Below, in pieces: positions 24,736-24,753 of a stretch of 64,000 nt of DNA. Below the pieces are notes generated by a model that saw nothing but the letters and a program-made list of their open reading frames with translations, did no database searches and had not been told where the DNA came from. The translations under genes were made by a program, and so were the position numbers. The stretch is taken from NCBI RefSeq assembly GCF_057098645.1, contig NZ_CM169472.1; one strand, written 5' to 3'. Each line of letters starts with the position of its first letter. Position 1 is the first letter of the stretch.

Positions 24736-24753
24736 CTATTGGTTAACCAATAG
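24736..24753. promoter_or_regulatory. Perfect 18-bp palindrome CTATTGGTTAACCAATAG upstream of uidR (candidate operator)
   Basis: Read directly; lies in the uidR 5' region between the hdhA 3' end and the uidR start. A related half-site (ttagttaaccaatt) occurs upstream of uidA near 23690-23703. Confidence 0.4.

Follow-up and report, generated by a model that had tools for sequence, protein, structure and literature searches.

A perfect palindrome upstream of uidR in an Escherichia coli O145:H28-type chromosome is probably a UxuR-type operator, with a separate conserved palindrome near gusA as candidate UidR operator

The perfect palindrome in the 5' region of uidR, found in the 64,000-nucleotide stretch of chromosome analysed here (hereafter the window), is likely to be a UxuR-type operator, and as such a candidate site for the hexuronate regulator, rather than an operator of UidR (GusR) itself. 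The perfect 18-bp palindrome that had been predicted here lies exactly where it was placed (CTATTGGTTAACCAATAG, 24736-24753), and one further complementary base on each side extends it to a perfect palindrome of 20 bp (GCTATTGGTTAACCAATAGC, 24735-24754), the longest in the 64-kb window. By chance, 0.06 palindromes of at least 20 bp are expected per window according to first-order Markov simulations, of which 19 in 300 had one. The site is located within the 228-bp spacer between hdhA and uidR, with its centre 120.5 bp upstream of the uidR ATG (24624, minus strand). Its conserved 14-bp core, ATTGGTTAACCAAT (24738-24751; TGGT-TA-ACCA, i.e. GT-N2-AC), is the part proposed as the candidate UxuR operator of uidR, based on its conservation and on its match to boxes at gntP/uxuA and uxuR of strain K-12. 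A full-text literature search with the palindrome sequence as literal text matched unrelated papers only. A hairpin with a 10-bp stem and no T-run behind it (24810-24840, minus strand) follows directly on the stop codon of hdhA, some 55 bp upstream of the palindrome.

The window represents an E. coli O145:H28-type chromosome, in which the segment 23400-25200 is shared at 100% identity with strain RM9872 and relatives. The genes of the region lie on the minus strand and include an intact uidA (beta-glucuronidase, 603 aa; 21832-23643), uidR (gusR; 24034-24624), which codes for a 196-aa TetR-family repressor matching the one solved as PDB 6AYI (E = 3.6e-125), and hdhA, which ends at 24853. Several differences from RM9872 are found in and around these genes. 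An insertion of 1195 bp interrupts uidC (18750-19944 of the window) and is an IS element, with a 326-aa ORF (18818-19798, plus strand) for a DDE transposase (Pfam DDE_Tnp_1, DUF772) and an 18-bp palindrome of its own (ATTCTGCCATGGCAGAAT, 18908-18925). A C>T change at 21542 truncates uidB, the ORFs being split into 20462-21508 and 21542-21835, and hdhA is frameshifted by the loss of 1 bp from a T-run at 25213; uidA has a T/C substitution at 23079, and 7 bp are deleted at 17975. Provided that these are not errors of the assembly, the genes for glucuronide transport appear to be inactivated in the strain. Elsewhere in the window, the malI/malX spacer contains two perfect palindromes, GATAAAACGTTTTATC (16 bp, 26868-26883) and TAAAACGTTTTA (12 bp, 26792-26803), which we take to be probable MalI operators.

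UxuR is a FadR-subfamily, GntR-family repressor of hexuronate catabolism. The 12-bp core of the palindrome, TTGGTTAACCAA, matches the box TTGGTnnACCAA with no mismatches, and the same box occurs as a pair in each of two K-12 spacers with established UxuR binding: as AAATTGGTCAACCATTGT and GATGTGGTTAACCAATTT (1 mismatch) between gntP and uxuA, and as TTACTGGTCAATCAAACT and TATTTGGTTGACCAGTTT (1 and 2 mismatches; 20 bp apart) between uxuB and uxuR. Genomic SELEX with purified UxuR identified gntP/uxuABR as its target, with 'two binding sites' in the operon (PMC5934670). The sites of FadR-subfamily GntR regulators are A/T-rich palindromes with TKGT/ACMA boxes, in which GT and AC are separated by 2 nt in UxuR sites and by 3 nt in ExuR sites (PMC4494728); the palindrome upstream of uidR, read as TGGT-TA-ACCA, has both the boxes and the 2-nt gap that this rule gives for UxuR. 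When a weight matrix was built from the four uxu boxes only, the K-12 uidR box and the distal uidA box (see below) were the best non-training matches in 108 kb. With the same four-site matrix, the training set of which is too small to judge flanks, the O145 uidR allele scored 13.9 and the K-12 allele 19.2, the lower score resulting from flank bases of the O145 allele that are missing from the four training boxes.

Published data bear on this assignment from both sides. The UxuR regulon has been described as including uidR, with uidABR activated on glucuronate and on deletion of uxuR (PMC10016265). However, the genomic SELEX of UxuR yielded no uid peak, and UxuR was termed a single-target factor, for gntP/uxuABR (PMC5934670). 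This missing peak counts against binding by UxuR, as a near-consensus site should be visible unless it fell below the cut-off, and the flanks of the O145 allele (GCT...AGC), being unlike the A/T-rich flanks of the uxu boxes, also count against it. In the lgoR/lgoD spacer of K-12, a reported member of the UxuR regulon, no box was found at up to 2 mismatches, so that a simple pattern evidently misses some reported UxuR targets. In Erwinia sp. S43, the genes uxuA-uxuB-uxaC-uxuR-gusR-gusA-gusB-gusC form one cluster (1-10473), in which gusR starts 16 bp after uxuR and TTGGTnnACCAA-type boxes are present before gusA. The Erwinia UxuR orthologue shares 73% identity with the E. coli protein and scores 448 bits against the NCBIfam cut-off of 442. 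The S43 cluster also contains a perfect (GCACTCA)n-like tandem repeat 3' of gusR (5607-5648 of the locus).

Across five E. coli alleles of the site, only ATTGGTTAACCAAT and the flank on the hdhA side are invariant. The three flank bases on the uidR side vary, being GCT in O145, AAA in K-12 and ATA in strain p11A; the K-12 allele accordingly reads AAATTGGTTAACCAATAG (AAATTGG...), the O145 allele begins with GCTATTGG... and other E. coli have ATATTGG.... A search of genome contigs for related loci yielded only three, all in Escherichia. In E. whittamii and two other divergent Escherichia lineages only TGGTT[A/G]ACCAAT is kept and the flanks are scrambled. The core of 12-14 bp thus has a clear phylogenetic footprint, and the perfection over 18-20 bp is restricted to one allele group. 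Among 5426 complete E. coli genomes, a 61-mer around the site was matched in 5266, with 1084 matches at 99% or more and 2136 in the 80-90% band, which contains the K-12-type alleles. Between the palindrome and the uidR ATG, a block starting with GAATAGAGTGTGCCTTCGCACTATTCAACAGCAATGATAGGCG... (about 24640-24716, minus strand) is almost invariant in all Escherichia lineages; within it are an imperfect inverted repeat, GAATAG(A)GTG...CACTATTC, and approximately 38 bp without a counterpart in Enterobacter or Cedecea, and when treated as RNA the block folds no better than shuffled sequences.

The core motif recurs upstream of uidA. The original prediction placed a related half-site at 23690-23703, and a related site is indeed present there, but it is a full 14-bp copy rather than a half-site (ATTAGTTAACCAAT; 1 mismatch, 13/14 positions identical to the uidR core), with its centre at -53.5 from the uidA ATG. 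A second, weaker box, TACTGGTCAACCTT (23669-23682), lies nearer to uidA, 21 bp from the distal box when measured centre-to-centre. At no more than 1 mismatch the uidR 14-mer is found at two places only in the window, i.e. the uidR site and the distal uidA site, and at none in 100 shuffles. A homologous pair of boxes precedes gusA in Salmonella, Enterobacter and Cedecea. The recurrence of a conserved motif before uidA makes it plausible that one regulator acts at both promoters through a shared operator, as had been proposed; the naming of that regulator as a UidR dimer of the TetR family found no support. An inverted repeat, CTGTGT-TGC-ACACAG (23705-23719), adjoins the distal uidA box and was flagged as terminator-like on the plus strand; no such repeat was seen in the other genera compared.

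An operator of UidR is more readily sought elsewhere. Two sites upstream of gusA, O1 and O2, have been labelled GusR operators, and upon deletion of O1, as the high-affinity GusR operator, repressing and inducing conditions differ little (PMC9881133). The O1 segment was located by mapping the deletion primers of that study, from which the operator sequence was in turn inferred: DE6279 maps to 23801-23820 and DE6280 to 23980-24000, which gives a deleted segment of 23821-23979. This segment excludes both TTAACCAAT boxes (23669-23703 and 24735-24754). What it does contain is CAACCGAACGTTCGCTC (23862-23878), with the 10-bp perfect palindrome CGAACGTTCG at 23866-23875, about 227 bp 5' of the uidA ATG, which we propose as a candidate for the true UidR/GusR operator (O1). 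Our comparison of eight gusR-gusA loci, those of E. coli and of seven other genera with orthologues taken from homologous-protein searches, shows gusR and gusA to be divergent in Enterobacter, Salmonella, Cedecea, Buttiauxella and Mixta and in tandem in Yersinia and Erwinia. All eight loci contain CGAACGTTCG with at most 1 mismatch (consensus CAAyCGAACGTTCrTTC), and the distance from its centre to the gusA ATG is 226-254 bp throughout, in either orientation of gusR. The eight orthologues show no variation in the helix-turn-helix of UidR, recognition helix SPGTLYHHF included, so a common operator is to be expected across these loci, and CGAACGTTCG was the only shared candidate found among them. 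The TTGGTnnACCAA box does not follow the gusR orthologues with this same recognition helix: it is present before gusA in six of the eight loci (none in Buttiauxella or Mixta) and before gusR in only three (E. coli, Enterobacter and Cedecea). No CGAACGTTCG-like site (at most 1 mismatch) was found upstream of uidR in the window.

Each of the eight genera has a TTGAC(A/T) hexamer exactly 17 bp from the AAyCGA of the CGAACGTTCG palindrome (23840-23878 in the window). The hexamer is directed away from gusA and, in E. coli, toward the 3' end of uidR. This constant arrangement suggests that the two elements may form a conserved promoter-operator module. The gusR-gusA locus of Enterobacter hormaechei lacks gusB and gusC and is flanked by IS1 and IS66/IS240-type transposase genes and by a group II intron reverse transcriptase gene, and it looks recently mobile.

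The original prediction had assigned the palindrome and the uidA site to UidR as TetR-family dimer operators, through which uidR would be autoregulated and uidA repressed by one and the same motif. Autoregulation of uidR was reportedly observed in older gene-fusion work, which we counted in favour of this assignment, and old genetic work suggests some interchangeability of the two repressors. A palindrome of 14-20 bp would also fit a TetR-family dimer, the site stands before the repressor's own gene with a near-copy before the regulated operon, and the uidA boxes could correspond to O2 (PMC9881133). Yet the motif is a box of the UxuR type that is also found at the uxu loci, which are not known targets of UidR, and the O1 segment lies outside both boxes and holds CGAACGTTCG instead, the palindrome that is kept at a constant distance in 8/8 loci. 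In addition, the box is absent from two of the eight gusR loci and precedes gusR itself in only 3/8 despite the invariant recognition helix, and the region upstream of uidR offers no CGAACGTTCG-like sequence in its place. We therefore consider UidR an unlikely binder of this palindrome. A variant of the UxuR explanation has ExuR as the main binder, or a UxuR-ExuR hetero-oligomer in place of UxuR alone, and it would agree with the lack of a uid peak for UxuR alone in a study that turns to mixed complexes of regulators to account for other targets (PMC5934670). The spacing speaks against it, since ExuR sites have GT-N3-AC (PMC4494728) and the palindrome, like the other uid boxes and the uxu boxes, has N2. 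Candidate sites in the ExuR regions of K-12, AAGTTGTATGACAAGTT between uxaC and exuT and AAAGTGGTATAACAAAT upstream of exuR, also show 3-nt spacing and a different core. A leading role for ExuR at this site, or a need for the hetero-oligomer, appears improbable.

It is highly improbable that the palindrome is no regulator site at all, being a chance palindrome around an HpaI site, a mere -35 region of uidR, or an RNA or terminator hairpin of hdhA. Such an origin would suit the allele-specific nature of the 18-20 bp perfection, the TTAACC half doubles as a -35 element and could alone explain some of the conservation, and a scan of the plus strand marked a terminator-like hairpin at 24751-24767. 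However, the 14-bp core is invariant throughout, in the half outside the -35 as well, while neighbouring bases vary, and the symmetric motif recurs at uidA, at the uxu loci and before gusR/gusA in other genera; this conservation and recurrence make chance and a pure promoter element unlikely explanations. A perfect palindrome with neither loop nor T-run is not an intrinsic terminator. No Rfam match was obtained at E <= 1, and the 5' leader downstream of the palindrome (24625-24716, the leader only being covered by the fold) folds no better than shuffled sequences (z = +0.76); on these grounds, together with the missing loop and T-run, the RNA and terminator readings were rejected.

Genomic SELEX with RNA polymerase holoenzyme gave a uidR promoter, TTAACC-17-TATACG, for the hdhA/uidR spacer (PMC3946193), and the corresponding distal promoter-like element in the window is TTAACC-17-CATACG (24718-24746, minus strand). 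Its -35 hexamer, TTAACC, is the right half of the palindrome, so a repressor dimer on the box would occlude the -35. A second, proximal promoter-like element, TAGGCG-17-TAAACT (24653-24681, minus strand), is predicted from its sequence and falls inside gBlock AP1, the 'native E. coli gusR promoter' (PMC9881133), at 24590-24684; the same pattern is found before gusR of Enterobacter, Salmonella and Cedecea as TAGGCG-17-TACACT. Relative to this proximal element the centre of the box lies near -98, which is not a classical position for occlusion. In Enterobacter and Cedecea the box is found approximately 18 bp upstream of the proximal-type -35, and no TTrACC-17 promoter is evident before gusR in either genus, so occlusion may be a mechanism specific to E. 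coli. A scan for consensus promoters returned nothing useful on the gene strand.

We infer that UxuR occupies this particular site and represses through occlusion of the -35. A dimer of UxuR, perhaps joined by the paralogous ExuR, would bind the core TTGGTTAACCAA and cover the -35 TTAACC of the distal uidR promoter, thereby excluding RNA polymerase, and release of UxuR by fructuronate or glucuronate would then raise transcription of uidR. UxuR would also bind the tandem pair of boxes that closely precedes uidA, and UidR would act via the separate CGAACGTTCG palindrome approximately 227 bp before the uidA start codon.

That the uid genes are controlled by both UidR and UxuR, and that uidR belongs to the UxuR regulon, has been published before. 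The original prediction was correct as an observation, and the site is of a known kind, but the wrong protein had probably been attached to it. Mildly new is that the palindrome is extended in an allele-specific manner, that E. coli uidR lacks the conserved UidR palindrome in its upstream region, and that this palindrome, CGAACGTTCG, keeps a constant spacing to gusA across eight genera. That CGAACGTTCG is fixed near gusA in all genera and has no counterpart upstream of E. coli uidR also led us to a more far-reaching reading, in which a rearrangement split E. coli gusR from the conserved UidR operator, so that uidR would not be regulated by its own product through an operator of its own and would essentially be controlled by UxuR through the palindrome; alternatively, UidR and UxuR might occupy the box together in a cooperative manner. 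We regard this as doubtful. If it were true, the O145 allele, with its 20-bp palindrome and a weaker distal -10 (CATACG rather than TATACG), could set a different level of UidR. The beta-glucuronidase of gut Enterobacteriaceae reactivates glucuronidated drugs and hormones, which makes the wiring of its repressors of practical interest. A correct assignment avoids the annotation of a false UidR autoregulatory site and directs engineers of GusR-based switches to CGAACGTTCG as the candidate UidR operator. Placing uidR under the hexuronate regulator UxuR amounts to a two-tier control that has already been described genetically, and current understanding is unchanged by the assignment of the palindrome.

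Compared with known systems, the palindrome upstream of uidR and the GusR/UidR operator O1 of the gus operon (Little et al. 2018, in the form used in PMC9881133) are both short palindromes within the uid regulatory region and would control the same pathway, but they differ in sequence (TTGGTTAACCAA and CGAACGTTCG, respectively), in place (O1 being at 23866-23875) and in phyletic spread (six of eight loci before gusA and three of eight before gusR, against 8/8 for O1). The operators of tetO type bound by TetR-family proteins are palindromes of similar length that are bound by a homodimer; there is, however, no evidence that ties the TTGGTnnACCAA motif to a TetR-family protein. With the ExuR operators (exuT/uxaCA and exuR) the site shares a paralogous regulator, an A/T-rich GT...AC palindrome and the same metabolic pathway, whereas the ExuR operators have the 3-nt GT-AC spacing and a TTGTATGACAA-like core. 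The UxuR operators of uxuAB/gntP and uxuR resemble the uid sites in having the palindromic core TTGGTnnACCAA with GT-N2-AC and in lying in promoter regions of hexuronide or hexuronate genes, and the tandem boxes before uidA (21 bp apart) resemble the two K-12 boxes before uxuR (20 bp apart). Unlike the uxu operators, the uidR site is a single box and not a pair, and in the O145 allele G/C-containing flanks complete the 20-bp palindrome where the uxu boxes have A/T-rich ones.
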